From: Candidatus Saccharimonadota bacterium
GTDB lineage: Bacteria > Pseudomonadota > Alphaproteobacteria > CAJXXZ01 > 1604HC
Assembly: GCF_008189405.1 (NCBI RefSeq)
Contig: NZ_CP043316.1
Coordinates: 480,001-512,000, forward strand
DNA: 32,000 nt
Direction: 5' to 3'
In this document: positions 10,813-24,494 of the stretch, one piece after another
Numbering within the stretch: the first letter of the stretch is position 1
Layout of the letters: each line of letters starts with the position of its first letter
Translations under genes and position numbers: made by a program
Notes under the pieces: model-generated
What the model saw: the letters and a program-made list of their open reading frames with translations, nothing else
Databases searched by the model: none
Told to the model about the DNA's origin: nothing

Positions 10813-12639
10813 TTGACTTCATTTGCTAGGTTTATTAGAATATTTATAGTGTTTGGTAAAAATAAAAATATAATTCTATGGTTTATGTTAGTGATTCTTG
10901 CAATCGGGATGGCTAATGTATTTAAAAATTCTGATCAGCATGATATTCAAAATATAGCTTTTTCTGATTTCGCTTCTGATACTAATAAAGGTTTAATATC
11001 TTCTGTTGTCATAAGAGGCCCTAATGTTAAGGGATTTTTCAAAAATGGACAGAAATTTTCTACAACTGTTCCATACTCCGATAAGAATCTAGTAAAAAGG
11101 CTTTTGGATAATAAGGTACATATACAAGCTTCCTATTCTCAAGAAACTTCTTTGGTGAATTGGGTAGGTTTGATTTTATCTTGGTTGCCATCATTATTAA
11201 TTGTTGGAATGATGTTTTATTCCATGCGTAATATTCAGGGTAGTGCTGGGAAAACAATGGGATTGTTCGGAAAACTAAAAGCTCGCCTAGCAACGGGAGA
11301 AAATAATAATATCACTTTCGCAGATGTTGCTGGAGCTAAAGAAGCTAAAGAAGGTTTGAAAGAAATTGTAGACTTTTTAAAAAATAAACAAAAATTTGCT
11401 TCTTTGGGAGCTAGAATACCTAAAGGTGTACTGCTCTCAGGCCCTCCTGGAACAGGAAAAACTTTACTAGCAAAAAGTGTGGCTGGTGAGGCTGGAGTCC
11501 CATTTTTCTCTACATCTGGTTCTGATTTTATCGAAATGTTTGCTGGAGTTGGAGCAAGTAGAATTAGAGATATGTTCGAACAGGGCAAAAAACATGCGCC
11601 ATGCATTGTGTTTATTGATGAGATTGATGCTATTGGAGCTAAAAGAGGCGGGGGCATGGGCAGTGGATGTGAAGAAAGAGAACAAACACTGAACCAACTT
11701 CTTGTAGAAATGGATGGATTCACCCCTAATGAAGGAGTAATAATTCTTGCTTCTACTAACCGAGCTGGCGTATTGGATCCAGCTTTATTGCGTGCAGGTA
11801 GATTTGACAGACAAGTGACATTTTCATTACCTAATTTGGAAGAAAGAAAAGAAATATTACGATTACATATGAAAAAAATCAAAACTGATGATAGCATAAT
11901 GATCGATACTATTGCACAAGGAACACCTGGATTCTCTGGAGCTGATTTAAGTAATTTGATTAATGAAGCTGCTATATTCGCTGCTCGATATGAAAAGAAC
12001 ATGGTTAACATGTCTGATTTCGAAGAAGCGAAAGATAAAATATTAATGGGATCAAAGAAGAGCTCACTTATCATAAGCGATGAAGATAAAAAGCTTACAG
12101 CATATCACGAAGCTGGTCATGCATTAGTTGCGCTTAAAAGTAAAAATTCTGACCCTATTCACAAAGCAACTATTATTGCACGTGGGCATGCACTTGGAAT
12201 GGTCGTACGCCTTCCTGAAAAAGATCAAGTTTCTGTTTCAAAAGCTAAGTTACTAGATGATTTGGTAGTTGCGATGGGTGGGTTAGCTGCAGAAAAAATG
12301 ATTTTTGGTGATGATAAAGTTACAACAGGAGCATCATCAGACATCAAAATGGCTACAAATATAGCTAGAAATATGGTTACAAAATGGGGAATGGGTGATG
12401 CTGGTTACGTACACTATAACTATAATGATCAATATGATAATTCCACATCCCAGAGTATGTATGAAGTGATTGATAAACAAGTAAAAAAGATTGTTGATAA
12501 TGCATTTGATGTTGCATCTCAGATCCTTAAAAAATACGAAGAAAATTTACATACACTAGCCCAAAACTTAATCGAAAAAGAAGAGTTAACTGGCAAAGAA
12601 ATCAATGCATTACTTAGTAAACACACTACATTTAGGTAA
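10813..12639 (+). CDS. ftsH: ATP-dependent zinc metalloprotease FtsH
   Basis: Walker A GPPGTGKT, Walker B FIDEIDA, SRH TNRAGVLDPALLRAGRFDR and the zinc site HEAGHA are present, with two N-terminal TM segments. The start is uncertain: TTG at 10813 or GTG at 10849 (MFGKNKN...). Confidence 0.95.
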   Translation: MTSFARFIRIFIVFGKNKNIILWFMLVILAIGMANVFKNSDQHDIQNIAFSDFASDTNKGLISSVVIRGPNVKGFFKNGQKFSTTVPYSDKNLVKRLLDNKVHIQASYSQETSLVNWVGLILSWLPSLLIVGMMFYSMRNIQGSAGKTMGLFGKLKARLATGENNNITFADVAGAKEAKEGLKEIVDFLKNKQKFASLGARIPKGVLLSGPPGTGKTLLAKSVAGEAGVPFFSTSGSDFIEMFAGVGASRIRDMFEQGKKHAPCIVFIDEIDAIGAKRGGGMGSGCEEREQTLNQLLVEMDGFTPNEGVIILASTNRAGVLDPALLRAGRFDRQVTFSLPNLEERKEILRLHMKKIKTDDSIMIDTIAQGTPGFSGADLSNLINEAAIFAARYEKNMVNMSDFEEAKDKILMGSKKSSLIISDEDKKLTAYHEAGHALVALKSKNSDPIHKATIIARGHALGMVVRLPEKDQVSVSKAKLLDDLVVAMGGLAAEKMIFGDDKVTTGASSDIKMATNIARNMVTKWGMGDAGYVHYNYNDQYDNSTSQSMYEVIDKQVKKIVDNAFDVASQILKKYEENLHTLAQNLIEKEELTGKEINALLSKHTTFR

Positions 12640-15252
12640 TTTAGACTTTAATAATTTCTGAACGTTCTCACTATCTTTAATGGGATTATTCCATAAATTC
12701 AACTTAGTAAGATTTGTTAGCTTATCTAATCCTGGCAATTCACTAAATTTATTATTACTCAAACTCAGCTCAATTAGATTTGTTAGATTATCCAGTCCTG
12801 GCAATTCACTTAACTGATTATCATATAAATACAACTCAATAAGATTCGTTAGCTTATCTAATCCTGGCAATTCGCTGAACTGATTAGAATTTATATTTAA
12901 TTTAGTTAAATTTGTTAGCTTATCCAACCCTGGCAATTCACTAAATTTATTCTTATATAAATACAACTGAGTTAGATTTGTTAGCTTATCCAATCCTGGC
13001 AATTCGCTGAACTGATTACTACCCAAATACAACTCAGTTAGATTCGTTAGTTTATCCAATCCTGGCAATTCGCTGAACTGATTATTACCCAAATACAACC
13101 CAGTTAGATTTGTTAGCTTATCTAATCCTGGCAATTCACTAAATTTATTATTATATAAATATAACTCAGTTAAATTTATTAGTTTATCCAATCCTGGCAA
13201 TTCACTGAATTGATTATTATATAAATTCAACTCAGTTAGATTTGTTAGTTTATCCAATCCTGGCAATTCACTGAACTTATTATAATTTAGATTCAATTTA
13301 GTTAGATTCGTTAGTTTATCTAATTCTGGCAATTCGCTGAACTGATTATTACGCAAATACAACCCAGTTAGATTTGTTAGCTTATCTAACTCTTGTAATT
13401 CACTTAACTGATTCCAACTTAAATCCAATTCAATTAGATTTGTTAGCTTATCCAATCTTAGCAATTCGCTGAACTGATTATTACTCAAACTCAGATCAAT
13501 TAGATTTGTTAGCTTATCCAATCCTGGCAATTCGCTGAACTGATTATTATGCAAATATAATTTAGTTAAATTTATTAGTTTATCCAATCCTGGCAATTCA
13601 CTTAACTGATTATTCATTAAATTCAACTTAGTTAAATTTGTTAGCTTATCCAACCCTGGCAATTCGCTGAACTGATTATTATGTAAATTCAACTCAGTTA
13701 GATTCTTGAAATTAGATAATCCATCTAATTTATTTAACTTCTTATCTTGTAGATCTAACTTAGTAATTTTATTGCGCCATGCACATAATTTTATTGCTCT
13801 CCCTAGCCTATCTAATAGTTCTTTATGTGTTGCGCCATATGGTGAAATAATGGATCTGCTTAATACTACCAATTCCTTATTTATGCTCAATGATGTAGTA
13901 ATAGATGCATCAAACCCCGTATGTATAGAATATAGTGTTTCGAGAGTATTTAATTCTACTAATTGATCACTATTTAGATTCAATGATGTAAGATTAGGCA
14001 ATTTGTCCAATGCTGGTAATGCGCTAAATTGGCTATCACTGAAATCTAATTCGGTCAAATTTGTAAGATTACCCAATTCTGGAAGTAAACTGCAATCGCT
14101 AAACCTCATATTTAATATAGTTAAATTCACTAATTTGTCTAACCCTGGGTATGCTATAAATTTATTCAATCCTAAATTCAATTCTTTCAAATTGATTAGT
14201 TTATCCAATCCTGGTAATTCACTGAACTGATTAGAATTTATATTTAATTTAGTTAAATTAATTAGCTTATCCAAATTAGGCAACTCTATTAAATTATTAT
14301 TTCCTAAATCTAGTAATGTAAGATTTTGCAAATTAGCCAAATCAATTTCTTCTAACTTATTATGCTTTAAATTCAATTTAGATACTTTTGGCAAATCAGT
14401 AAAATCAGGTAATTCGCTAAACTTATTGTAGCTTAAATCTACTGTCTCTAAACTCACACACTGCTCAAAACCCTGTAATTCTTCTAACTCATTACAATGC
14501 AAATCCATATGCTCTAAGCGAATACATTTATCCAATCCCTCTAACCGCTTTAATTTATTATTTGATAAATCTAATTCTATTAAATTTATGCATCTATTTA
14601 ATGGACAAAATGTAGTCAACTTATTATTTGCTAAATCTAATTTTCTTAAAAATATCGATCTACCTAAATCAGGAGGCGATTCGATTCTATTATTATTTGC
14701 ACATATTTCAAATGCATTATGTATATGCCCAGGCAATGTTGTCAAACAGTTTTCTTGTAACCTCAAACAGCTTATGTTTATTCCCATTGGATTGTAAATA
14801 TTCTGCATTATATGTGTAGGGAATTCTTTTAGCTTTGACCCTTCCATATATAATGTGCCTATTTCAACCTTTGTAATCATCTCTGGTAGTTCTTCTAAAC
14901 CACTTATATTTAAAGATAAAGCTAAATATGTTTGCATAGAGTATTTATATATTTCGATTAAACTTTTTATATATGGACTATCATTTTCTCTAATAATCTC
15001 CTTTAGAGTTTCAGGATTTTTAGCATATCGCTCATAATTCTCATCAATATTTTCAGTAATACTTTGTGGCAACCAAGCATATTTATCCCCATTTTCCGTC
15101 AAAAAACTAGCGCGTTTATCAGATTTATACAGATCTATCATTAAACCCAAACGCTCTTCAATTCCCTTTTCAATATCGGTTACAGTATTCGTACCACATA
15201 TCATTAACGCATACAAATAGAAATTTAATATTTTCATGCCACCATTATACAT
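12610..15252 (-). CDS. Large leucine-rich-repeat protein (880 aa) with a 22-residue internalin-like repeat
   Basis: A non-repeat N-terminal region of about 190 aa is followed by about 11 divergent LRRs and a non-LRR linker of about 60 aa. Sixteen very regular units then follow (LPGLDKLTNLTxLxLxxNQFSE). The 3' end overlaps the ftsH 3' end by 30 nt. Confidence 0.9.
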   Translation of the reverse strand: MYNGGMKILNFYLYALMICGTNTVTDIEKGIEERLGLMIDLYKSDKRASFLTENGDKYAWLPQSITENIDENYERYAKNPETLKEIIRENDSPYIKSLIEIYKYSMQTYLALSLNISGLEELPEMITKVEIGTLYMEGSKLKEFPTHIMQNIYNPMGINISCLRLQENCLTTLPGHIHNAFEICANNNRIESPPDLGRSIFLRKLDLANNKLTTFCPLNRCINLIELDLSNNKLKRLEGLDKCIRLEHMDLHCNELEELQGFEQCVSLETVDLSYNKFSELPDFTDLPKVSKLNLKHNKLEEIDLANLQNLTLLDLGNNNLIELPNLDKLINLTKLNINSNQFSELPGLDKLINLKELNLGLNKFIAYPGLDKLVNLTILNMRFSDCSLLPELGNLTNLTELDFSDSQFSALPALDKLPNLTSLNLNSDQLVELNTLETLYSIHTGFDASITTSLSINKELVVLSRSIISPYGATHKELLDRLGRAIKLCAWRNKITKLDLQDKKLNKLDGLSNFKNLTELNLHNNQFSELPGLDKLTNLTKLNLMNNQLSELPGLDKLINLTKLYLHNNQFSELPGLDKLTNLIDLSLSNNQFSELLRLDKLTNLIELDLSWNQLSELQELDKLTNLTGLYLRNNQFSELPELDKLTNLTKLNLNYNKFSELPGLDKLTNLTELNLYNNQFSELPGLDKLINLTELYLYNNKFSELPGLDKLTNLTGLYLGNNQFSELPGLDKLTNLTELYLGSNQFSELPGLDKLTNLTQLYLYKNKFSELPGLDKLTNLTKLNINSNQFSELPGLDKLTNLIELYLYDNQLSELPGLDNLTNLIELSLSNNKFSELPGLDKLTNLTKLNLWNNPIKDSENVQKLLKSKLPKCSVFTK
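12670..13735. repeat. Tandem 66-bp coding repeats (about 16 units) inside the 880-aa LRR gene
   Basis: The motif cctggcaattc recurs at 12731, 12797, 12863, 12929 ... 13655, an exact 66-nt register over 14 intervals. Many stretches of about 40 nt are identical between units. Confidence 0.92.
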
Positions 15253-15452
15253 ATAATTCTTGCAATATCAACTACATATTAGATATGTTTAAGTGATTCT
15301 CAAATATTGATAAAATAGCTTAAATATCATCTAAATTTAAATGATATTTCTGCATTTAATACAAATTAATAATTTGTACTGAGAATACCATATCAAACTG
15401 ATGCTAAACAATGACAATCATGATTTCTTATAGTCAGATACAGCATTAAAAT

Positions 15453-16838
15453 TTATGCTCTATCCAAATCGTAAAATTTAGTCATAGCATCTTCAAATCC
15501 GATTTGCATATTTTTAATTGGACCATGCCTTTGTTTTGCAATCATAATCTCAGCTAAATTATGTATTTTTTCCATTTTAGCTTGCCATACTTCCATTTTA
15601 TCTGAACCCTCAGATGGTTTTTTTCTCGCTTCATAATAGGCTTCACGGAAAATAAACATTACAACATCAGCATCTTGCTCAATAGTACCAGATTCACGTA
15701 AGTCAGATAATTGAGGTCGCTTATCATCTCTTTGTTCAACTGCACGTGATAACTGTGATAATGCAACCACTGGTACTGATAATTCTTTTGCCAATGATTT
15801 TAATGATCTTGTAATAAATGATAATTCTTGCACCCTATTATCTTGATTCATACCAGAATGCATTAATTGTAAATAATCTAAAATAATTAAATCTAAATTC
15901 TCTTGCCTATGCAATCTCCTTGCTCGTGTTCGCAATCCAGATACACTCAATGCAGGTGTATCATCAATAAACAAAGGAATATCAAACAATTTCTGTGAAG
16001 TTTTTGTTAATTTATGCATTTCATGTTCTTGAATAGCTCCTCTTCTGATCTTATCAGATGGAATATTGGTCTCAGAACCTAGGATACGTAAAGCAAGTTG
16101 CTCTGAAGACATTTCAAGAGAGAAAAATGCTACTTTTTTCTTTTTTGAAGCAGCCTGAAATGCAATATTAGTTGCTAATGCAGTTTTACCCATAGATGGT
16201 CTTGCAGCTAAAATAATCAAATCAGATTTATGGAACCCACCTAAAGCTCTATCTAATTCATATAATCCTGTAGATATACCAACTACATGATCAGTACTCC
16301 TAAAAGCAACTTCTGCTTGTTTCACTGCTGCTGTCAATGCATTTCCAAAATTTATATCATTCTTTTGAGTACCTAACGTAGCTAAAGAAAATAAATTATG
16401 CTCTGCTTTTTCAATTTGCTCTAATGCGCTATGTTGTAATTGCATATCATAGGCTTCGCCTTTTATTTTATCTCCTATAAGTATTAATTGCCTTCTAACA
16501 TAACGGTCAAAGATTTGCTTACCATAGTCTTCTGTATGAGATAAAGAAATAATGTAAGATTCAAGATTTTTTAAATACTCTTCCCCACCATATTCTTTAA
16601 TTAATTCATCTTGTAGGAAAAATGGCCAAATTGTAATTGGATTAGCAAGCTGACCCTTTCCAATAGTATAAGATATATGCTGGAATATTTTTTTATGTAA
16701 TGGGTCAAAGAAATGCTCAGGTAATAAAAATTCTGCTATATTCTCGAAAAGTAAATTTTCATGCAAAACAGCTCCTAGAAGCGCTTTTTCTGCTTCTAAA
16801 GCATTAGGTAATATCTTTACTTCTTGAATATCATTCAT
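15453..16838 (-). CDS. dnaB: Replicative DNA helicase DnaB
   Basis: N-terminal PNALEAEKALLGAVL, Walker A AARPSMGKTALA, Walker B IILDYLQLM, and the SQLSR and RESGTIEQDADVV motifs are present. The gene starts 14 nt downstream of rplI. Confidence 0.95.
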   Translation of the reverse strand: MNDIQEVKILPNALEAEKALLGAVLHENLLFENIAEFLLPEHFFDPLHKKIFQHISYTIGKGQLANPITIWPFFLQDELIKEYGGEEYLKNLESYIISLSHTEDYGKQIFDRYVRRQLILIGDKIKGEAYDMQLQHSALEQIEKAEHNLFSLATLGTQKNDINFGNALTAAVKQAEVAFRSTDHVVGISTGLYELDRALGGFHKSDLIILAARPSMGKTALATNIAFQAASKKKKVAFFSLEMSSEQLALRILGSETNIPSDKIRRGAIQEHEMHKLTKTSQKLFDIPLFIDDTPALSVSGLRTRARRLHRQENLDLIILDYLQLMHSGMNQDNRVQELSFITRSLKSLAKELSVPVVALSQLSRAVEQRDDKRPQLSDLRESGTIEQDADVVMFIFREAYYEARKKPSEGSDKMEVWQAKMEKIHNLAEIMIAKQRHGPIKNMQIGFEDAMTKFYDLDRA

Positions 16839-16852
16839 ACTTTACGAATATA

Positions 16853-17323
16853 TTATTCTATAACTTCTGGAGATTTTACATTAATTGTAATGTTAGATTG
16901 ATTTCCATAAGTGTGTATTTGTGCAGTAAATGATCCAATCTCTTTAATAGGTTTCATAACAATATCTTCTTTTTTAATTGCAAAACCTTTATCAGCAAGC
17001 TGCATAATAATTTCTTTACTAGAAATAGAACCATAAAGTCTGAATCCATCAACAGTATTATGTTCAATATCTATTGTGATTTTATCAATTTGATCTTTAA
17101 TTGCCTTACCTTCTGCTTTTCTCTTTTCATCTATAGATAACCAATCGTTTCTTTTTTGTTCAAGCATTTCTAGATTTGGTTTAGTAGCCATAACAGCTCT
17201 TCCTTCAGGAATCAGAAAATTCAAAGCATATCCTCTTTTAACTGATACTACGTCACCAGGAAGACCTCTGCCTCTTAATCTTTCTTTCAATACTACAGAT
17301 ATTAAATGTGATGTTTTTTTCAT
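16853..17323 (-). CDS. rplI: 50S ribosomal protein L9
   Basis: VVLKERLRGRGLPGDVVSVKRGYALNFLIPEGRAV matches the L9 N-domain. The ATG at 17323 is preferred. The ORF extension to a TTG at 17416 is low-complexity with no L9 counterpart. Confidence 0.9.
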   Translation of the reverse strand: MKKTSHLISVVLKERLRGRGLPGDVVSVKRGYALNFLIPEGRAVMATKPNLEMLEQKRNDWLSIDEKRKAEGKAIKDQIDKITIDIEHNTVDGFRLYGSISSKEIIMQLADKGFAIKKEDIVMKPIKEIGSFTAQIHTYGNQSNITINVKSPEVIE

Positions 17324-17449
17324 AATATATACATTATTCTCCTCAAAAATGCTATTAAAATCAATAGCAAAAAATGTATTAGTAAATGTATTGGAAAATA
17401 ACAAGAATCCAGTCAAGAAAAATAATGAAAATTCTGCTAAAATTAATCT

Positions 17450-17647
17450 ATGTTTTTAAACATATCAATCGTATCAATATTAATTATATCAATATCCAAA
17501 AAGAGTTGGAGCAAATTTATAATTATAGATAGTATACTTCCTATTATATGTATCATATGGCTCAAACATGGCGTATCTTCTGAATATATATTTTTCTTCT
17601 TGATAAGTTCTTATTTATTACCTAAAATTCTAAAGGCGGTTTCATGA
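17450..17647 (+). CDS. Hypothetical small membrane protein (65 aa)
   Basis: ATG-initiated ORF with two hydrophobic segments. Its stop overlaps the next ORF's start (ATGA, 4-nt overlap). It could be a chance ORF in AT-rich DNA. Confidence 0.3.
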   Translation: MFLNISIVSILIISISKKSWSKFIIIDSILPIICIIWLKHGVSSEYIFFFLISSYLLPKILKAVS

Positions 17648-18138
17648 ATTCATTACTTAATTTTCATAACAAAATTACAAATTATTTCCATAACAAATCC
17701 ATGTGTATTATGTGTATGTTTTGGATAATACCATTTTTTATAAGTTTAACTATAGCATGGGTAGTACTACTAATAATTTTCTTTTTACTAGCAATGTTTG
17801 TCCCTATTTTTATACCTATTTTTGTATTACTTTCACTTGGAATAGCATTGATCAATATTATAATGCATATGCCATTATTAAGCATTTTATTTATAGGAGC
17901 ACTATGGGTACTGAGAGACCAAATCGATACAATATGGCATCAATTTTTCTTAAAAAAGAGTTATTCAATTCAAAAACCAATATTATCAAACTCTGCTCCT
18001 TTGATTTTATCTATATTTATAGTTCATGGATTATTCTATGTGCTTCCATTACCAAATATCTTAAAATTTGCAATCTTGTCATTAATTTCTGTTTATATGT
18101 TTAAAAACTCTAAGCATAACCATAAATGTTGTAATTAA
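17644..18138 (+). CDS. Hypothetical polytopic membrane protein (164 aa)
   Basis: About 4-5 predicted TM helices separated by a basic loop (RDQIDTIWHQFFLKKSYSIQK). It is on the same strand as, and 91 nt upstream of, the first SIGNL-type LRR gene. I recognise no family. Confidence 0.5.
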   Translation: MNSLLNFHNKITNYFHNKSMCIMCMFWIIPFFISLTIAWVVLLIIFFLLAMFVPIFIPIFVLLSLGIALINIIMHMPLLSILFIGALWVLRDQIDTIWHQFFLKKSYSIQKPILSNSAPLILSIFIVHGLFYVLPLPNILKFAILSLISVYMFKNSKHNHKCCN

Positions 18139-18229
18139 TATAACAATAAAAATAAAACTTATTAAATAAGAGATAGATTTTATAAAGTATATAATTTACA
18201 AAAAAATCATCTTACGATAATATAAAAAT

Positions 18230-19570
18230 ATGAAGAATTTTATGGTGTATGGTGCCGCATTGGCATTATATAATACTGCTCACTCTATAGGGTATTATGA
18301 AGAAGCAATTAGAAAATATGATAATCATTTGTACTTATGCTTGGAGAAAGTCAACAAATCCAATAAAACATTTCCATTAGATGCATTTGATCTTATTATT
18401 TCGTATGTTTACAGAAAAGATAGCATGGGTGATATTATTAACTGCGTTGGATTACGTTGTAGTGCACAAAGTGGTTTGGATAAACTATATCTAAATCATG
18501 TAGTCGGAGTCATGCAATTAATATCAAGCTGTTATAATTATGAAAGTTTATATTTGGATAATGCAAACTTAAGCGAAGTAAATCCTCATATATGCACAAT
18601 GGGTGCCAGATTGGAAAAATTAGTATTAAGTCATAATCAAATAAAATTATCATACCCAGCAAACAGCAAACCAATTCCTAATGTAGGTGATCTAACTAAG
18701 CTAGCAGAATTAGATTTAGGATCAAACAATATCACATCACTACCTGAATATGTATATAAATTAGAGAACTTATGGAGATTAGATTTGAGTTCTAATGACT
18801 TAGAATCTCTTGATCCTGTATTAGCTCCTATAGCTCCTATAGTCATCACTAAGAAGGTTAAAGAGTCATTTTTTAGCAGATTATTTAAGAAAAACAAAAA
18901 GGTAGAAGCAAAACCATTAGTTGATTCTCCTAGAAGATCATATGATTTGAGCGATTTGAAAAATATGGAAATGTTGAATTTAAATAACAATCAACTTACT
19001 GAATTGCCACAGTCAATTGGACGCTTAAAAGAATTACGAGAGTTAAGTGCTGATGCAAATCAACTTACTGAATTGCCTGATTTAAGTAACTCAAATAAAT
19101 TAGAGAGGTTATGTATAAAATTCAATAACATAACAGTGTTCCCTACTTTAAGTTTCAGTATTAGAATATTAAATTTAGCATTCAATCAAATTGAACTGCT
19201 ACCTAATATCAATCATTTAGTAAATGCGGAAGAAATCTACCTAAATAACAACTGCATCAAACTACTACCTAATATAAATAATTTATCTAATCTAAAAGTA
19301 CTACATTTGCATGTCAATAAACTGACTAAATCACCTAACGTAGATGGGTTAACCGAATTAAAAGTATTAAGATTGGAAAGAAATCCAATTGTACAAGATA
19401 GCCAATCTTCTGCAGCACAAAGTGAATGTGATAATCAAAATTCCACAAAAGATTCCCAAGAAGATGAGAGTCATGGAAATTCATTAAGAGAAGAAGCATA
19501 CAGCAGACCAGATTCCGTAGGAAGTGAATGGGTATTACCAGAATCCCCATTATCTCAACCTTCTGATTAA
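18230..19570 (+). CDS. Leucine-rich-repeat protein (446 aa) with a 23-residue LTELPxSIG-type repeat
   Basis: The N-terminus is signal-like (MKNFMVYGAALALYNTAHS). Two LRR blocks follow (e.g. LNLNNNQLTELPQSIGRLKELRELSADANQLTELP), split by a basic insert. The 59-aa C-terminal tail is acidic and Ser/Gln-rich. Confidence 0.87.
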   Translation: MKNFMVYGAALALYNTAHSIGYYEEAIRKYDNHLYLCLEKVNKSNKTFPLDAFDLIISYVYRKDSMGDIINCVGLRCSAQSGLDKLYLNHVVGVMQLISSCYNYESLYLDNANLSEVNPHICTMGARLEKLVLSHNQIKLSYPANSKPIPNVGDLTKLAELDLGSNNITSLPEYVYKLENLWRLDLSSNDLESLDPVLAPIAPIVITKKVKESFFSRLFKKNKKVEAKPLVDSPRRSYDLSDLKNMEMLNLNNNQLTELPQSIGRLKELRELSADANQLTELPDLSNSNKLERLCIKFNNITVFPTLSFSIRILNLAFNQIELLPNINHLVNAEEIYLNNNCIKLLPNINNLSNLKVLHLHVNKLTKSPNVDGLTELKVLRLERNPIVQDSQSSAAQSECDNQNSTKDSQEDESHGNSLREEAYSRPDSVGSEWVLPESPLSQPSD

Positions 19571-19698
19571 ATTTTTTAATTATTAAAATCTAGATTTGAA
19601 ATATATCATTTAGACACATCATTGAAACAAAATCATCAATTTGAATTAACTAAAAACACTGGATTGCCAAATCATTATACATCAACTACAATGCACCA

Positions 19699-21801
19699 AT
19701 GAATTATACAAAGAGAATAAATTTACTATGTTTCCTAGCATCATGTAGTATAAATGCAAGTTATATTGATGAAGTGTGCCATGAAGTATCTTATGAATAT
19801 ATTGGGCAATGTCGTAAATCAATACAATTTGATCAATGCAAATTTTTGCAGGAATTCCTGTTCAGAAAAACAAAAAAAAATCTACCAAGAGGCGCATATG
19901 ATTCTGTAATGTCATTTATGCACATAGATGATCATTATTTTATGCATTTAAGTGACCATATGCTCAATATTTTTTGTGAAAAGCATATAGCAAGCGATGA
20001 TCATATGAAAGAATATATACTAAAATTATCTTTTAATATAATAGAGCCTCATATAATACAAAGGACAAAAAGGTTGCGTGAACCTTTATTAGAATTAGAT
20101 AATACCCCAAACTATATAAGCAAACTAACTGAATTAACGGAATTATGTTTACACTACAGTGACTTAGAGGTATTGCCTTCATTTGTAGCCAACCTCACCA
20201 AATTAACTAATTTAAGCTTTGGCCAAAAACAATTAAAAGTATTACCAGAATTCATTGGAAACTTACGTGAGTTAATATATTTGCACTTATCTTGCCCTCA
20301 ATTAGAAACACTACCAGATTCTATTGGGAATTTAAATAAATTGACAGAGCTTAATTTATACAGTGAGTGCGGTAATAAATTAGAAGCATTCCCAAATTCT
20401 ATAGGAAATTTAACAGAATTGACAATGTTTGATTTTGCACGTAGTCAAATCAAACTATTGCCAAATTCTATAGGGAATTTAAATAAATTAGTCTATATTT
20501 ACTTAGAAGATAATCAATTAGAAGTATTACCAGATTCTATAGGGAATTTAATAAGCTTGAAAAGATTAGAATTAGCACGTAATAAACTAAACGTATTGCC
20601 ACAATCTATAGGAAATTTGATGGAATTGAGAGTTCTGATTCTGTCACATAATAAATTAGAAGTATTGCCAAATTCTATAGGAAATTTAAATAAGTTGAAA
20701 TATTTAATATTAATTGATAATCAACTAAAAATGCTACCAGATTCTATCGGAAATTTAACTAGCTTGCAGGAATTACCCCTGTCAAATAATCGATTAAAGG
20801 TATTACCAGAATCTATTGGAAATTTAATTAGCTTGAAAGATTTACACCTGGATTGTAATCAACTAAGAACACTTCCAGAATCTATAGGAAATTTAACTAA
20901 TTTGATAGATATGCCATTACATAATAATCAATTAGAAGAACTCCCAAAGTCCATAGGAAATTTAAATAAATTAAAATACTTTCGTATAGAAAATAATCAA
21001 TTAAAAGTATTACCAGAATCTATTGGTAAATTAATTTTATTAGTATGGTTAAACTTAGCACATAACCAATTAGAAGAATTACCAGAATCTATAGGCAATC
21101 TAAATAAATTAGAAAAATTAGAACTATCACATAATCGACTCAAAGTATTGCCACAATCTATACAGGCATTAAAAAACTTGGAAAAATTATTTATGTCATA
21201 TAATCTACTCAAAGTATTGCCACAATCTATACAGGTATTAAAAAACTTGGAAAAATTATTTATGACACATAATCAATTAGAAACACTTCCAGAGTCGATA
21301 CAAAATTGCACAAAATTAAGATTATTAGATTTAGAACATAATCAATTAAAAGCACTGCCAAGATATATGAAAGACTCTATCACAACACTAATAAGACTTG
21401 ATTTATCATATAATCAATTAGAGACACTTCCACAGCTTACACAAGATTTAGTAGGATTAGGATCGCTATCCTTATCACTAGCACATAATCCATTAAAAAT
21501 ATTGCCAGAACAGTATATAGAATATGCTATAAGCTTAGAATCATTATATGTATCGTATGATCAATTAGAAGAATTGTCAAAATATATTATTAGTTTAAAT
21601 GAATTCACACATAAGCTACAAGGAAATACTGTGCTACTAAACAGTATTTTCGTATTAGATATGGATAAAAAAAATACGGCAGACACTACAACAATTAGGT
21701 ATCATATAAAATTGGGTGGGAAAATTGCAATGACGGATTATCCTAAATGTATTATATCAAAATGGTGGACTACAAAAGCAAGAGTAATTGGATTAGAATA
21801 A
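19699..21801 (+). CDS. Leucine-rich-repeat protein (700 aa), about 20 LPxSIGNLxxLxxLxLxxNxL repeats, putative lipoprotein
   Basis: The N-terminus MNYTKRINLLCFLASC fits a lipobox (L-A-S-C). A non-repeat domain of about 140 aa is followed by about 20 highly regular 23-residue repeats and a non-repeat C-terminal domain of about 90 aa. Confidence 0.9.
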   Translation: MNYTKRINLLCFLASCSINASYIDEVCHEVSYEYIGQCRKSIQFDQCKFLQEFLFRKTKKNLPRGAYDSVMSFMHIDDHYFMHLSDHMLNIFCEKHIASDDHMKEYILKLSFNIIEPHIIQRTKRLREPLLELDNTPNYISKLTELTELCLHYSDLEVLPSFVANLTKLTNLSFGQKQLKVLPEFIGNLRELIYLHLSCPQLETLPDSIGNLNKLTELNLYSECGNKLEAFPNSIGNLTELTMFDFARSQIKLLPNSIGNLNKLVYIYLEDNQLEVLPDSIGNLISLKRLELARNKLNVLPQSIGNLMELRVLILSHNKLEVLPNSIGNLNKLKYLILIDNQLKMLPDSIGNLTSLQELPLSNNRLKVLPESIGNLISLKDLHLDCNQLRTLPESIGNLTNLIDMPLHNNQLEELPKSIGNLNKLKYFRIENNQLKVLPESIGKLILLVWLNLAHNQLEELPESIGNLNKLEKLELSHNRLKVLPQSIQALKNLEKLFMSYNLLKVLPQSIQVLKNLEKLFMTHNQLETLPESIQNCTKLRLLDLEHNQLKALPRYMKDSITTLIRLDLSYNQLETLPQLTQDLVGLGSLSLSLAHNPLKILPEQYIEYAISLESLYVSYDQLEELSKYIISLNEFTHKLQGNTVLLNSIFVLDMDKKNTADTTTIRYHIKLGGKIAMTDYPKCIISKWWTTKARVIGLE
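21139..21264. repeat. Near-perfect 69-bp tandem duplication inside the 700-aa LRR gene
   Basis: ctcaaagtattgccacaatctatacagg[c/t]attaaaaaacttggaaaaattatttatg occurs at 21139-21195 and again at 21208-21264, with 56/57 nt identical. It encodes LKVLPQSIQ[A/V]LKNLEKLFM twice. Confidence 0.9.
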
Positions 21802-21809
21802 ATATAATT

Positions 21810-23663
21810 TCAAATCAAAATCTCCCTCTTACCAGATCGATCTGGTTTACTTACAACTCCCTGCTCTTCCATAGATTCAACAATACGTGCAGCCCTATTA
21901 TATCCAATTTGCAATTGACGCTGAATGTAACTAATTGATACTTTTTTATCTCGTAAAATAACTTGTACAGCCTGTACGTACATGGGATCATTATTTTCTT
22001 CCTCATCAAGATTATGTTCTTTAACTTCTAATTCTATATAAACAGGCTCTCTCTGCTCTTTTAAAAAATTTGTAATTTCCTGAACTTCATCATCAGATAC
22101 AAAAGGAGCTTGGATTCTTGTAGTAGGGTAACCAGGAGAAAGATAAAGCATATCTCCTTTTCCTAGCAACTGCTCTGCTCCACTATTATCTCCCATAATT
22201 GTTCTGCTATCAATTTTGGATGCTAATTGGAATGTTATTCGTACTGGGAAATTGGATTTAATTGTTCCTGTAATAACGTCTACTGATGGCCTTTGAGTAG
22301 CCATAATAATATGTATTCCGGCTGCACGAGCCATTTGAGCTAATCTCTGTACGGACACTTCAATTTCTTTTCCAGCTGTCATCATCAGGTCAGCCATTTC
22401 ATCTACTACTATAACCAAATATGGCATTTTCTCGTACTTTTTATCAGTTTTTGCTTTAAAAGATTCACGCTGTACTTTTTCATTGAAACTTGAAATATTT
22501 CTCACTTCAACTTCAGAAAGTAATTTATATCTCCTTTCCATTTCTTGTACTGCCCATTTCAAAACTTTTACAGCTTCTTGAGGGTTAGTGACAACTGGGG
22601 TAAGAAGATGTGGGATTCCATTGTAAACTGATAATTCTAATTGCTTAGGATCAACCAATATAAACTTACAGTCATCTGGATCTTTTGAATATAACAGAGA
22701 AAGCATCATACTATGCATCGAAACAGATTTACCTGAACCTGTAGTTCCTGACACAAGCAAATGAGGCATTTGATTTAAATCTACGATAATTGGTTTCCCA
22801 GTTATATCACAGCCTAATGCTAATGGTAAATTACAATTATTATTCTGGAAAACACTAGAATCTAGCACATCACGCAAGTTAATCAAATTCCTAACTTTAT
22901 TTGGCAATTCAATTCCTAGTAGATTCTTACCTGGAATAGTTGAAATACGGGCAGAAAGAGACTCAGTAGAACGTGCAATATCATCAGATAAGTTTATGAT
23001 TTTTGATGCTTTTACCCCTGGCGCAGGTTCAAATTCAAACATCGTAACAACTGGCCCATTATGCTGGTTTAGTAGCTTTCCTTCCACTTTATATTCATTC
23101 AATATTTTTTGTAATAATTCTTTCGAAATGCTTTCTGATCTTTTTGATTTAGATGAAGACAGAAATGAAACTTTAGGCAGCATAAAAGAAGATTTAATCG
23201 TTTTGGCTTTTTTATTTATACTTTTAACAGATTTCACTTTATTTGTTTCTGGAGATTTTGTACGATTTCCAAATATGTGATTTCCTAATATACCACTCTT
23301 AAATATACGTTTGTAACCATAGTAATATAAATATAAGAATAGTATTGGCACATAAATGTAAGCAGAAATAGCAGAAATGAACTGCTTATTGATCATTCCG
23401 AACATTCCACCTAATTGCATATTATTCGTAAATTTAAAAGTTCTTACAATTCCAAATTTATCTAAATCACCCAAAATAATACTAGATATTACAGCAAGCA
23501 GTATCGAATGTAGTTTCAAAAAAGGAATAAAAGGCGCAATCAGAATTGTTAATCCAAAAAAATCATATAATGCAGTTAAGGTATGGTATGAATTCCACCC
23601 AGAATTAAAAAAACAATACATATACATAATTGATATAGCTGAATATAAATATTTAATAATCAT
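21810..23663 (-). CDS. ftsK: DNA translocase FtsK (short form)
   Basis: N-terminal TM helices are followed by a motor domain with Walker A VSGTTGSGKS and Walker B LVIVVDEMADLM. The C-terminal winged-helix gamma domain is SISYIQRQLQIGYNRAARIVESMEEQGVV. Confidence 0.93.
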   Translation of the reverse strand: MIIKYLYSAISIMYMYCFFNSGWNSYHTLTALYDFFGLTILIAPFIPFLKLHSILLAVISSIILGDLDKFGIVRTFKFTNNMQLGGMFGMINKQFISAISAYIYVPILFLYLYYYGYKRIFKSGILGNHIFGNRTKSPETNKVKSVKSINKKAKTIKSSFMLPKVSFLSSSKSKRSESISKELLQKILNEYKVEGKLLNQHNGPVVTMFEFEPAPGVKASKIINLSDDIARSTESLSARISTIPGKNLLGIELPNKVRNLINLRDVLDSSVFQNNNCNLPLALGCDITGKPIIVDLNQMPHLLVSGTTGSGKSVSMHSMMLSLLYSKDPDDCKFILVDPKQLELSVYNGIPHLLTPVVTNPQEAVKVLKWAVQEMERRYKLLSEVEVRNISSFNEKVQRESFKAKTDKKYEKMPYLVIVVDEMADLMMTAGKEIEVSVQRLAQMARAAGIHIIMATQRPSVDVITGTIKSNFPVRITFQLASKIDSRTIMGDNSGAEQLLGKGDMLYLSPGYPTTRIQAPFVSDDEVQEITNFLKEQREPVYIELEVKEHNLDEEENNDPMYVQAVQVILRDKKVSISYIQRQLQIGYNRAARIVESMEEQGVVSKPDRSGKREILI

Positions 23664-23712: not shown

Positions 23713-24399
23713 CTACGATATCCTATAGTGAATACTTAGCCCAGCTCTGCTAACTTTTGGCTTAAATCGGAAGAATCTTGAATCAAATGGAGAAATTGAA
23801 TTGAGTCCAAATGATTTGCTTTCTAGCCTATTAAAACTTGTCACTGCCCATATATATGATATATCAAAGCTTAATTTTGATGATATCTCAAAATACATTC
23901 CACTTTTCACACCAAAAAATGGGACAAAAATACTTTTCTCATCAAATTCTATTTTATTATTATTTGATGGATCGAATATACCAGATGACATATCTATAAA
24001 TGATGCTTCTGGTTTAAATCTTGTTGCACAAATTCCAGGACCAGTATATATTTTCATTTTTCTTGAACCAATCCCAATTTTAGCAAAAAGCTCTAAATTT
24101 AGGTTGTCATTTTTAATCTTTAGATCTAATTCATCACTTGTATAAGTAATAGTTTTATTTACTATACCTATATTAACACTGCCCCCAATATGTACAATTC
24201 TATTGATATTATTCCAATGATCAAATGATAATCCAAAACTAAAATTTTTACTTGTTTTCATCTTTTTACCATTTAAATCATTGTCTGATTTAATTACAGG
24301 TTGCTTAAAATCCTTAGATCCTAATGCAATACCTATTCCAGTATTCGCATACAAATGAGCAGCAAACATACAACTGATTAGAGCACTTCTAATAAACAT
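23713..24399 (-). CDS. Putative small outer-membrane beta-barrel protein
   Basis: A signal peptide (MFIRSALISCMFAAHLYA) is followed by about 8 amphipathic alternating-hydrophobic strands (FSFGLSFDH, LELFAKIGIG, FGVKSGMYFEIS, LSFDISYIWAV, AGLSIHYRI). The C-terminus lacks the usual terminal Phe. The ORF extends to 24417. Confidence 0.6.
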   Translation of the reverse strand: MFIRSALISCMFAAHLYANTGIGIALGSKDFKQPVIKSDNDLNGKKMKTSKNFSFGLSFDHWNNINRIVHIGGSVNIGIVNKTITYTSDELDLKIKNDNLNLELFAKIGIGSRKMKIYTGPGICATRFKPEASFIDMSSGIFDPSNNNKIEFDEKSIFVPFFGVKSGMYFEISSKLSFDISYIWAVTSFNRLESKSFGLNSISPFDSRFFRFKPKVSRAGLSIHYRIS

Positions 24400-24494
24400 A
24401 CACCAATTATAAAGCATATCTACATATAAATTAAGGTACTAAAACAATATAAAAATAAGATGCTAAAATGGTATGAAAATGCTAGAATAGTGAC

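Follow-up and report, generated by a model that had tools for sequence, protein, structure and literature searches.

The 32,000-nucleotide (nt) stretch of DNA analyzed here (hereafter the window) is part of the 622-kb genome of Candidatus Cytomitobacter primus, a member of the Holosporaceae that lives as an endosymbiont in the diplonemid Diplonema japonicum. It carries a block of four consecutive plus-strand open reading frames (ORFs), which encode two small membrane proteins followed by two leucine-rich-repeat (LRR) proteins. We refer to these genes as orf65 (65 amino acids, aa), orf164 (164 aa), Cp446 (446 aa) and Cp700 (700 aa), and to a further LRR gene outside the block as Cp880 (880 aa). 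The orf164 protein and the DnaB protein encoded beside the block both have exact sequence matches in the Darwin Tree of Life assembly of C. primus (GCA_951805245.1, OX638200.1; 622,378 bp).

A four-gene block between rplI-dnaB and ftsK

The block opens with orf65 (17450-17647, plus strand), a gene contained in the ORF list and backed by orthologues, whose product is a small hydrophobic membrane protein with two to three hydrophobic segments. Its stop codon overlaps the start codon of orf164 (17644-18138, plus strand) in a 4-nt ATGA sequence (17644-17647). Orf164, which also has orthologues, encodes a membrane protein with approximately four membrane helices, as judged by hydropathy. An AT-rich spacer of 91 nt (18139-18229) leads to Cp446 (18230-19570, plus strand), whose product matches the Pfam families LRR_4 and LRR_8. 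A second spacer of 128 nt (19571-19698) precedes Cp700 (19699-21801, plus strand), with matches to LRR_14, LRR_8 and LRR_4. The block is divergent from dnaB and rplI (15453-17416, minus strand; Pfam DnaB/DnaB_C and Ribosomal_L9) and convergent with ftsK (21810-23663, minus strand; Pfam FtsK_alpha, FtsK_SpoIIIE and FtsK_gamma), with the stop codons of Cp700 and ftsK lying only 8 nt apart.

An earlier note on this DNA had described the four plus-strand ORFs with the same coordinates and sizes, as well as the ATGA overlap and the 91- and 128-nt spacers. All of this agrees with our analysis, and the Pfam matches confirm its placement of the block between the minus-strand rplI-dnaB and ftsK genes. 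Its statement that mobile-element genes are absent was borne out by domain, repeat and composition checks. Searches for transposase and integrase domains (Pfam) and for flanking direct or inverted repeats at the block found none, and the G+C content at third codon positions ranges from 0.20 to 0.24 across the four block genes, compared with 0.14-0.23 in core genes of this genome (30% G+C overall). Given the lack of such domains and flanking repeats and the native base composition, we reject insertion of a mobile element as the origin of the block. Its composition resembles that of the rest of the genome, and there is no sign of a recent transfer. A phage origin or a role in anti-phage defense was also rejected, with no match in PADLOC and no meaningful match in PHROG.

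A conserved pair of small membrane proteins

Orf65 and orf164 are genuine coding genes. Orthologues exist, and the low ratios of nonsynonymous to synonymous substitution rates (dN/dS, 0.09-0.47) indicate that purifying selection has kept the pair in at least three lineages. A word-indexed search of 5.8 billion proteins returned a single non-self homologue of orf164, the protein P0002, which is 57% identical and encoded on a 1,029-bp Logan contig from sequencing run SRR12358676 (hereafter L003). The orthologue from C. indipagum is 55% identical and located at positions 14644-15204 of the region that we took from this species (L004; CP043315.1). Orthologues of orf65 are found at positions 3-197 of L003 (64 aa, 48% identity) and at 15201-15395 of the C. 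indipagum region (minus strand, 52% identity). The earlier note had reckoned with the possibility that the membrane ORFs lack homologues; these are present in both C. indipagum and L003. Its designation of the two small ORFs as membrane proteins also holds, with both products strongly hydrophobic by hydropathy.

Across the three lineage pairs, dN/dS amounts to 0.14-0.47 for orf65 and 0.09-0.21 for orf164, with synonymous sites near saturation, and the differences between the three lineages are most frequent at third codon positions, followed by first and then second positions. The ATGA overlap (TCATGA/ACATGA junction) is retained in C. primus, C. indipagum and L003, which suggests that translation of the two genes may be coupled.

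The pair is incompletely represented in current annotation. None of the gene calls for the window contig (L001), L003 and L004 includes orf65, which is probably a small gene that was missed in public annotation. For orf164, the NCBI product comprises only 140 aa and starts from an internal methionine. Because the 24 residues upstream of this methionine (17644-17715; HNKxTNYxH...MCIxC) are conserved in both orthologues, translation probably starts at position 17644 instead.

No family match was obtained for any of the six orthologues of the two proteins in Pfam, NCBIfam, PHROG, PADLOC or PDB profiles (best Pfam E-value 0.4), and a three-sequence alignment of the membrane protein detected nothing in metagenome contigs. 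Scans of a genome contig collection with DnaB and with the membrane-protein alignment yielded no relative; Cytomitobacter genomes seem to lie outside this collection. So far, the pair is known only from Cytomitobacter.

Alignment of the orf164 orthologues identified an N-terminal H..H..MCIxC motif, whose invariant MCIxC is located where the first hydrophobic helix begins, and a conserved basic loop (RDQI...KSxSIQKP). The C-terminal tail is rich in histidine and cysteine residues and has expanded to HIHHHCCDSNHNNNC in C. indipagum. The N-terminus, the middle loop and the tail carry the positive charges. In orf65, the conserved residues D27, C34 and E45 lie within the hydrophobic segments. An AlphaFold2 (AF2) model of orf164 based on a two-sequence alignment is all-helical, with a predicted local distance difference test (pLDDT) score of 59 and a predicted template modeling (pTM) score of 0.34, and too poor for a fold search.

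Variable gene content next to ftsK

The gene content around ftsK was compared among five relatives (L004-L008), which were found by a search with the FtsK protein of the window. Downstream of ftsK, C. indipagum carries the LRR genes LRR109, LRR291 and LRR395, followed by the membrane pair. This arrangement has the order seen in C. primus and is contained in an inverted block; 47 nt separate the membrane gene from the first LRR gene. On the L003 contig, which is closer to C. indipagum by its orf164 protein (69% identity, compared with 55-57%), only 29 nt separate the end of the pair from the stop codon of ftsK, and no LRR gene intervenes. Both the pair and LRR genes are absent within 10 kb of ftsK in two other Cytomitobacter-like genomes (L005 and L006; ENA ERZ25333217 and ERZ25333236), in N. 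abundans (L007) and in a more distantly related, 558-kb alphaproteobacterial metagenome-assembled genome (L008; CP060235.1) whose FtsK protein is 59% identical. The latter contains three ankyrin-repeat genes (554, 90 and 483 aa) at 12593-16349 (minus strand), which are convergent to ftsK.

The ftsK-side LRR genes of C. indipagum (L004 11825-14596, minus strand) show signs of decay, while the pair beside them is intact. The LRR395 frame continues as LRR-like sequence beyond two in-frame stop codons, and LRR291 and LRR109 look like a single gene that has been split and frame-shifted. The N-termini of the C. indipagum proteins are paralogous to each other (z-score 18.5) but not significantly similar to the N-termini of Cp446 and Cp700. 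Other LRR genes lie in places without the pair. They include Cp880 in C. primus, a short LRR remnant (L004 3720-3956, plus strand) in the ftsH-dnaB gap of C. indipagum, which occupies the same position as Cp880, and another LRR gene at the far end of L004.

The co-occurrence of membrane ORFs and LRR genes in related genomes, which the earlier note had put forward as a check, is thus observed in the same gene order in C. indipagum but not in L003, where the pair lies without an LRR gene between it and ftsK. Moreover, local synteny is shared in full between C. primus and C. indipagum, so that the linkage in these two species counts as a single arrangement passed on by descent and not as an independent co-occurrence.

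Directly upstream of ftsK, a gene for a 234-aa protein (23713-24417, minus strand) gives a weak beta-barrel outer-membrane signature (PF13505, E-value 2e-4). It is kept in this position in C. primus, C. indipagum (L004 9367-9999) and L005 (9378-10001), with 41-46% identity.

The LRR proteins Cp446, Cp700 and Cp880

Both Cp446 and Cp700 belong to the leucine-rich repeat superfamily (LRR_8, LRR_4, LRR_14). Cp700 comprises approximately 18-19 units of the LPxSIGNLxxL type with a strict 23-residue period, corresponding to a 69-nt periodicity of the DNA. It includes 11 exact SIGNL and 14 LPxSI motifs as well as 15 consecutive 23-residue spacings, and it scores 194, 152 and 112 bits against LRR_14, LRR_8 and LRR_4, respectively. 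The repeats are flanked by an N-terminal region of ~120-145 aa and a C-terminal region of ~70-90 aa, which we call orphan because the top matches cover residues ~120-630 only. This limit emerged from an exhaustive HMMER search that returned 130,091 cluster representatives at E<=0.001, the best 150 of which align solely within this range. The full-length search is swamped by generic LRR proteins and, as regards the termini, tells only that they are absent from the top matches. A single-sequence AF2 model of Cp700 reached pLDDT scores of 55-80 in the LRR part and less than 35 in both termini, which makes it unfit for a fold search.

Cp446 scores 79 and 76 bits against LRR_4 and LRR_8 (cutoff 27) and consists of an orphan N-region of ~125 aa, three LRR units, a lysine-rich insert of ~45 aa, seven further units and an acidic, Ser/Gln-rich tail. 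Its units are mostly 22 residues long (20-22) and of the LPNINxLxN type, with a single LPQSIGRL unit among about ten and no SIGNL motif. Among the 5.8 billion clustered proteins, there was no orthologue of Cp446, the best non-self match being 32% identical and limited to the LRR part. Similarity between Cp446 and Cp700 is restricted to the repeats (30% identity, 78 bits) and slightly lower than that between Cp446 and Cp880 (34% identity, 87 bits); the N-termini of Cp446 and Cp700 resemble each other only marginally (z-score 2.9; 4 of 300 shuffled sequences). The two proteins therefore do not qualify as a pair of recent paralogues, and their previous description as two paralogous SIGNL-type LRR proteins is not supported. 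Cp700 falls into the SIGNL/SHOC2-like class of 23-residue LRRs and Cp446 does not.

The local LRR content extends beyond the block to Cp880 (12610-15252, minus strand), which lies between ftsH and dnaB, just past dnaB, and was missed by the earlier note. Its units are 22 residues long and of the LPGLDKLTN type. They include 17 tandem 66-nt copies with ~65-84% identity, suggesting recent internal amplification. The 3' end of Cp880 overlaps that of the convergent ftsH ORF (10813-12639) by ~30 nt.

By eye and hydropathy, the N-terminus of Cp446 is signal-peptide-like, beginning with MKNFMVYGAALALYNTAHS. Cp700 begins with MNYTKRINLLCFLASC, in which LASC resembles a lipobox, and the C. indipagum LRR proteins at the locus begin with MNKIILS.... 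All five LRR proteins encoded at the locus in the two species start with a basic residue and then a hydrophobic stretch of 9-12 residues, a feature consistent with Sec-dependent export.

Relationship of the LRR proteins to characterized families

The repeat class of Cp700, with its 23-residue units and LPxSIGxL signature, is that of SHOC2 and also of LRRD1 and RSU1, and the match to SHOC2 is strong (E-value 4e-70). The best matches among solved structures are LRR proteins of Leptospira interrogans (LIC11098, LIC10831 and LIC12759; PDB 4u08, 4u06 and 4u09), bacterial proteins that are built almost wholly from 23-residue LPxxIGxLxNL-type units. For Cp700, LIC11098 (4u08) ranks first with an E-value of 3e-80, followed by a plant receptor kinase and SHOC2; for Cp446, the best E-value is 7e-35. 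The earlier note had called this the class best known from eukaryotic proteins, which is right only in part, since the closest solved structure is bacterial, if only just ahead of SHOC2. The likeness to SHOC2-like eukaryotic scaffolds does not extend beyond the repeats, this class is very large and heterogeneous, and Cp446 is mostly of the 22-residue type. The relationship to Leptospira has its limits too. Scores with the related NCBIfam model LIC_11051 are 177 and 50 bits, far below its cutoff of 1000. Unlike the Leptospira LRR proteins, Cp446 and Cp700 have orphan N-regions, Cp700 has an additional orphan C-region, and the bacterium that encodes them is an obligate endosymbiont of a protist.

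LRR effectors of host-associated bacteria provide a further point of comparison. The best partial NCBIfam matches of Cp700 were to XopAE, XopL and XopAC of Xanthomonas (246, 180 and 204 bits), although it did not reach the respective cutoffs of 600, 500 and 450, and Cp446 scored 43, 45 and 52 bits. Neither an E3 domain of the XopL type nor the Fic domain of XopAC was found. Membership in the Listeria internalins (NCBIfam internalin_A and others) was not supported, with 45 bits for Cp446 and 293 bits for Cp880 against a cutoff of 1600. The same is true for E3 ligases of the IpaH/SspH (NEL) type: the SspH2 model gave 37 and 25 bits compared with a cutoff of 1243, covering LRRs only, and Pfam revealed no non-LRR domain.

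Transcription signals and neighboring genes

A search of the 91- and 128-nt spacers found no terminator-like sites. Each spacer contains one promoter-like match, a weak one at 18195-18223 (9/12 positions), whose frequency is no higher than in shuffled sequences, and another at 19664-19692 (10/12 positions), which is not significant. The predicted folds of the spacers are indistinguishable from those of shuffled sequence (z-scores of -0.32 for the 91-nt and +0.49 for the 128-nt spacer). Scans of this kind for promoters, terminators and RNA folds are, however, little informative in AT-rich DNA.

Next to the block, the rplI ORF (16853-17416, minus strand) is listed with a TTG start codon. Its L9 domain covers the sequence from residue 40 onwards, and translation probably starts at the ATG codon of residue 32 (MKKTSHL), in which case the divergent gap between rplI and orf65 would measure ~126 nt. 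A 5S rRNA gene lies at 27484-27599 (minus strand), with no 23S rRNA match within the 32-kb window. The next genes upstream of the 5S gene on the same strand are rpsI and rplM (28363-29410), so that it appears to be unlinked from a 23S gene.

Discussion

Our analysis suggests that the block between rplI-dnaB and ftsK of C. primus is, on balance, best understood as two separate units that are neighbors by descent, a conserved membrane pair and a lineage-variable LRR slot, a reading that we regard as reasonably probable. We favor it because the pair stays intact and constrained in three lineages while the LRR genes in the slot are replaced, eroded or deleted, and because LRR genes are also found at sites without such a pair. 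The first unit would be formed by orf65 and orf164 as a bicistronic membrane pair under purifying selection, whose products are likely small, translationally coupled inner-membrane proteins. Cp446 and Cp700 would represent the second unit and be part of a small, fast-evolving repertoire of LRR proteins. The slot between the pair and the 3' end of ftsK would accordingly be open to different contents, holding other LRR genes in C. indipagum, nothing in L003 and ankyrin genes in L008.

The presence of LRR genes as such in C. primus has already been annotated and published, and both bacteria and eukaryotes commonly have repeats of these classes. George et al. (bioRxiv 10.1101/719211; Curr Biol 2020) described LRR proteins beside type VI secretion genes and "throughout all diplonemid endosymbiont genomes", with Pfam counts of three LRR_8 and four LRR_4 for C. 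primus and 22 and four, respectively, for C. indipagum, and proposed that they interact with the eukaryotic host. Their study also reported 60 predicted proteins with signal peptides, a cytoplasmic life outside host vesicles and the absence of a type III secretion system from Cytomitobacter (bioRxiv 10.1101/719211). It thus covers the same organism and, in bulk, the same genes, whereas the ftsK-side locus, the membrane pair and the variable slot are not described there. Cp446 and Cp700 may reach the envelope, the surface or beyond by means of their Sec-signal-like N-termini. Because C. primus is found in the cytoplasm of its host and not inside vesicles, it is conceivable that their LRR solenoids bind host proteins in this compartment. 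Taken together, we consider export and binding to host proteins most likely for these repeat proteins. The earlier note had interpreted the whole block as a host-interaction module. The LRR genes remain plausible host-interaction genes, in agreement with George et al., but a dedicated pairing of membrane and LRR proteins is not supported, given the situation in L003 and the turnover of the LRR genes.

Several points weigh against the division of the block into two units, or against parts of it. The order of the pair and the LRR genes, their common strand and spacers of 47-91 nt between them are kept in two species, and no terminator-like structure was found between the genes, so that they may be co-transcribed and have some functional link. 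The idea of a slot is based on a small number of genomes, namely three that carry the pair and one that carries ankyrin genes. In addition, the topology of orf65 and orf164 and the signal peptides of the LRR proteins were judged from hydropathy and by eye. Finally, the role in metal handling that we consider below for the pair receives no homology support from Pfam, NCBIfam or the PDB, where no match was found, and the AF2 model was unusable in this respect.

An alternative in the spirit of the module proposed in the earlier note is that all four genes constitute one operon or module in which the membrane proteins export, anchor or mature the LRR proteins encoded downstream. We consider this idea unlikely. 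Beyond the shared strand, the short 91- and 128-nt spacers and the lack of terminator-like hairpins, the idea draws on the conserved succession of pair, LRR gene, LRR gene and ftsK in C. indipagum, with its 47-nt gap, and on the fact that the pair is unexplained by any known family. However, the linkage in the two species goes back to a single inherited arrangement, and the pair of L003, situated directly against ftsK without an LRR gene, is still under purifying selection. In C. indipagum, the LRR genes erode next to an intact pair, and the N-termini of the LRR proteins show no detectable homology between the species. LRR genes also occur where no such pair is present, namely as Cp880, as the remnant next to dnaB and as the gene at the far end of L004; George et al. 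counted 22 LRR_8 matches in C. indipagum. Promoter-like hexamers precede each LRR gene, though they are statistically not meaningful. A variant of this idea, to which we attach only a slim chance, holds that the pair is an undescribed two-subunit membrane device, with CxxC and His/Cys motifs in the cytoplasm and charged residues inside the membrane, which in the common ancestor of C. primus and C. indipagum was functionally tied to the downstream LRR genes, for instance through the export, anchoring or metal-dependent maturation of surface LRR proteins.

The opposite view would regard the LRR genes as non-functional remnants on their way to being lost, such that only the pair matters and the block has no role in host interaction. 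In line with it, C. indipagum has split or interrupted LRR genes at this site, L003 has none, and orthologues are not detectable. Yet Cp446 and Cp700 are uninterrupted over 446 and 700 codons in a genome with 30% G+C, in which stop codons arise easily, the LRR scaffold positions are well kept over ~18-19 units, and a strongly reduced 622-kb genome retains ~3.4 kb of such sequence here as well as the 2.6 kb of Cp880. We therefore hold this explanation to be improbable. Yet another proposal concerns the identity of the LRR proteins and sees in Cp446 and Cp700 F-box-LRR proteins that mimic eukaryotic ubiquitin-ligase adaptors, similar to the GALA effectors of Ralstonia. It was motivated by the motifs LPRGAYDSVMSFM and FPLDAFDLIISYV upstream of the repeats, which by visual inspection look like the start of an F-box, and by the marginal alignment of the two N-termini across this motif (z-score 2.9). 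Against it, the Pfam F-box is absent even at E-values up to 10, and a profile built from eight seed sequences scored -0.9 and -0.4 bits, with 100 of 400 and 82 of 400 shuffled sequences scoring at least as well; with pLDDT <35, AF2 gives no usable model of the N-terminus of Cp700. In the absence of a Pfam F-box, and with a custom profile that performs no better on the real proteins than on shuffled ones, this identity is effectively refuted at the sequence level, and we assign it a negligible probability.

Returning to the two-unit reading, it is tempting to speculate about the function of the membrane pair. By the positive-inside rule, orf164 would have four membrane helices and both termini in the cytoplasm. 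Since positive charges occur at its N-terminus, in its middle loop and in its tail, both Cys/His motifs would then be cytoplasmic, given four helices, placing the N-terminal H..H..CxxC motif and the C-terminal His/Cys tail on the same side of the membrane. As a working guess, possible but on the doubtful side, orf65 and orf164 might form a small membrane complex that handles metal ions or thiols. The Mer transporters MerC, MerT and MerF have two to four membrane helices, a Cys pair or CxxC motif at the first helix and more cysteines near the C-terminus. Orf164 is like them in being a small membrane protein with Cys motifs. It has no Pfam match to the Mer families even at E-values up to 10, is not found in the context of a mer operon and differs from these transporters by its added His-rich motifs and its 65-aa partner.

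Collectively, our findings do not overturn current views of these endosymbionts. New are the orphan and partly unannotated membrane pair, the clustering of three LRR genes around dnaB, rplI and ftsK in a genome with a published count of only three LRR_8 and four LRR_4 matches, and the turnover of the ftsK-side slot. They also correct the annotation of the locus by adding the 65-aa gene and assigning a longer start to the 164-aa gene. Should the pair turn out to be a membrane device tied to the LRR proteins, the block would represent a novel type of cassette for host interaction in endosymbionts with extremely reduced genomes. Hardly any metabolism is left in Cytomitobacter, yet it has kept genes for repeat proteins, which are the best candidates for manipulating or attaching to the diplonemid host, possibly including the reported association with its mitochondria. 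The locus described here thus provides concrete candidates for work on host interaction.

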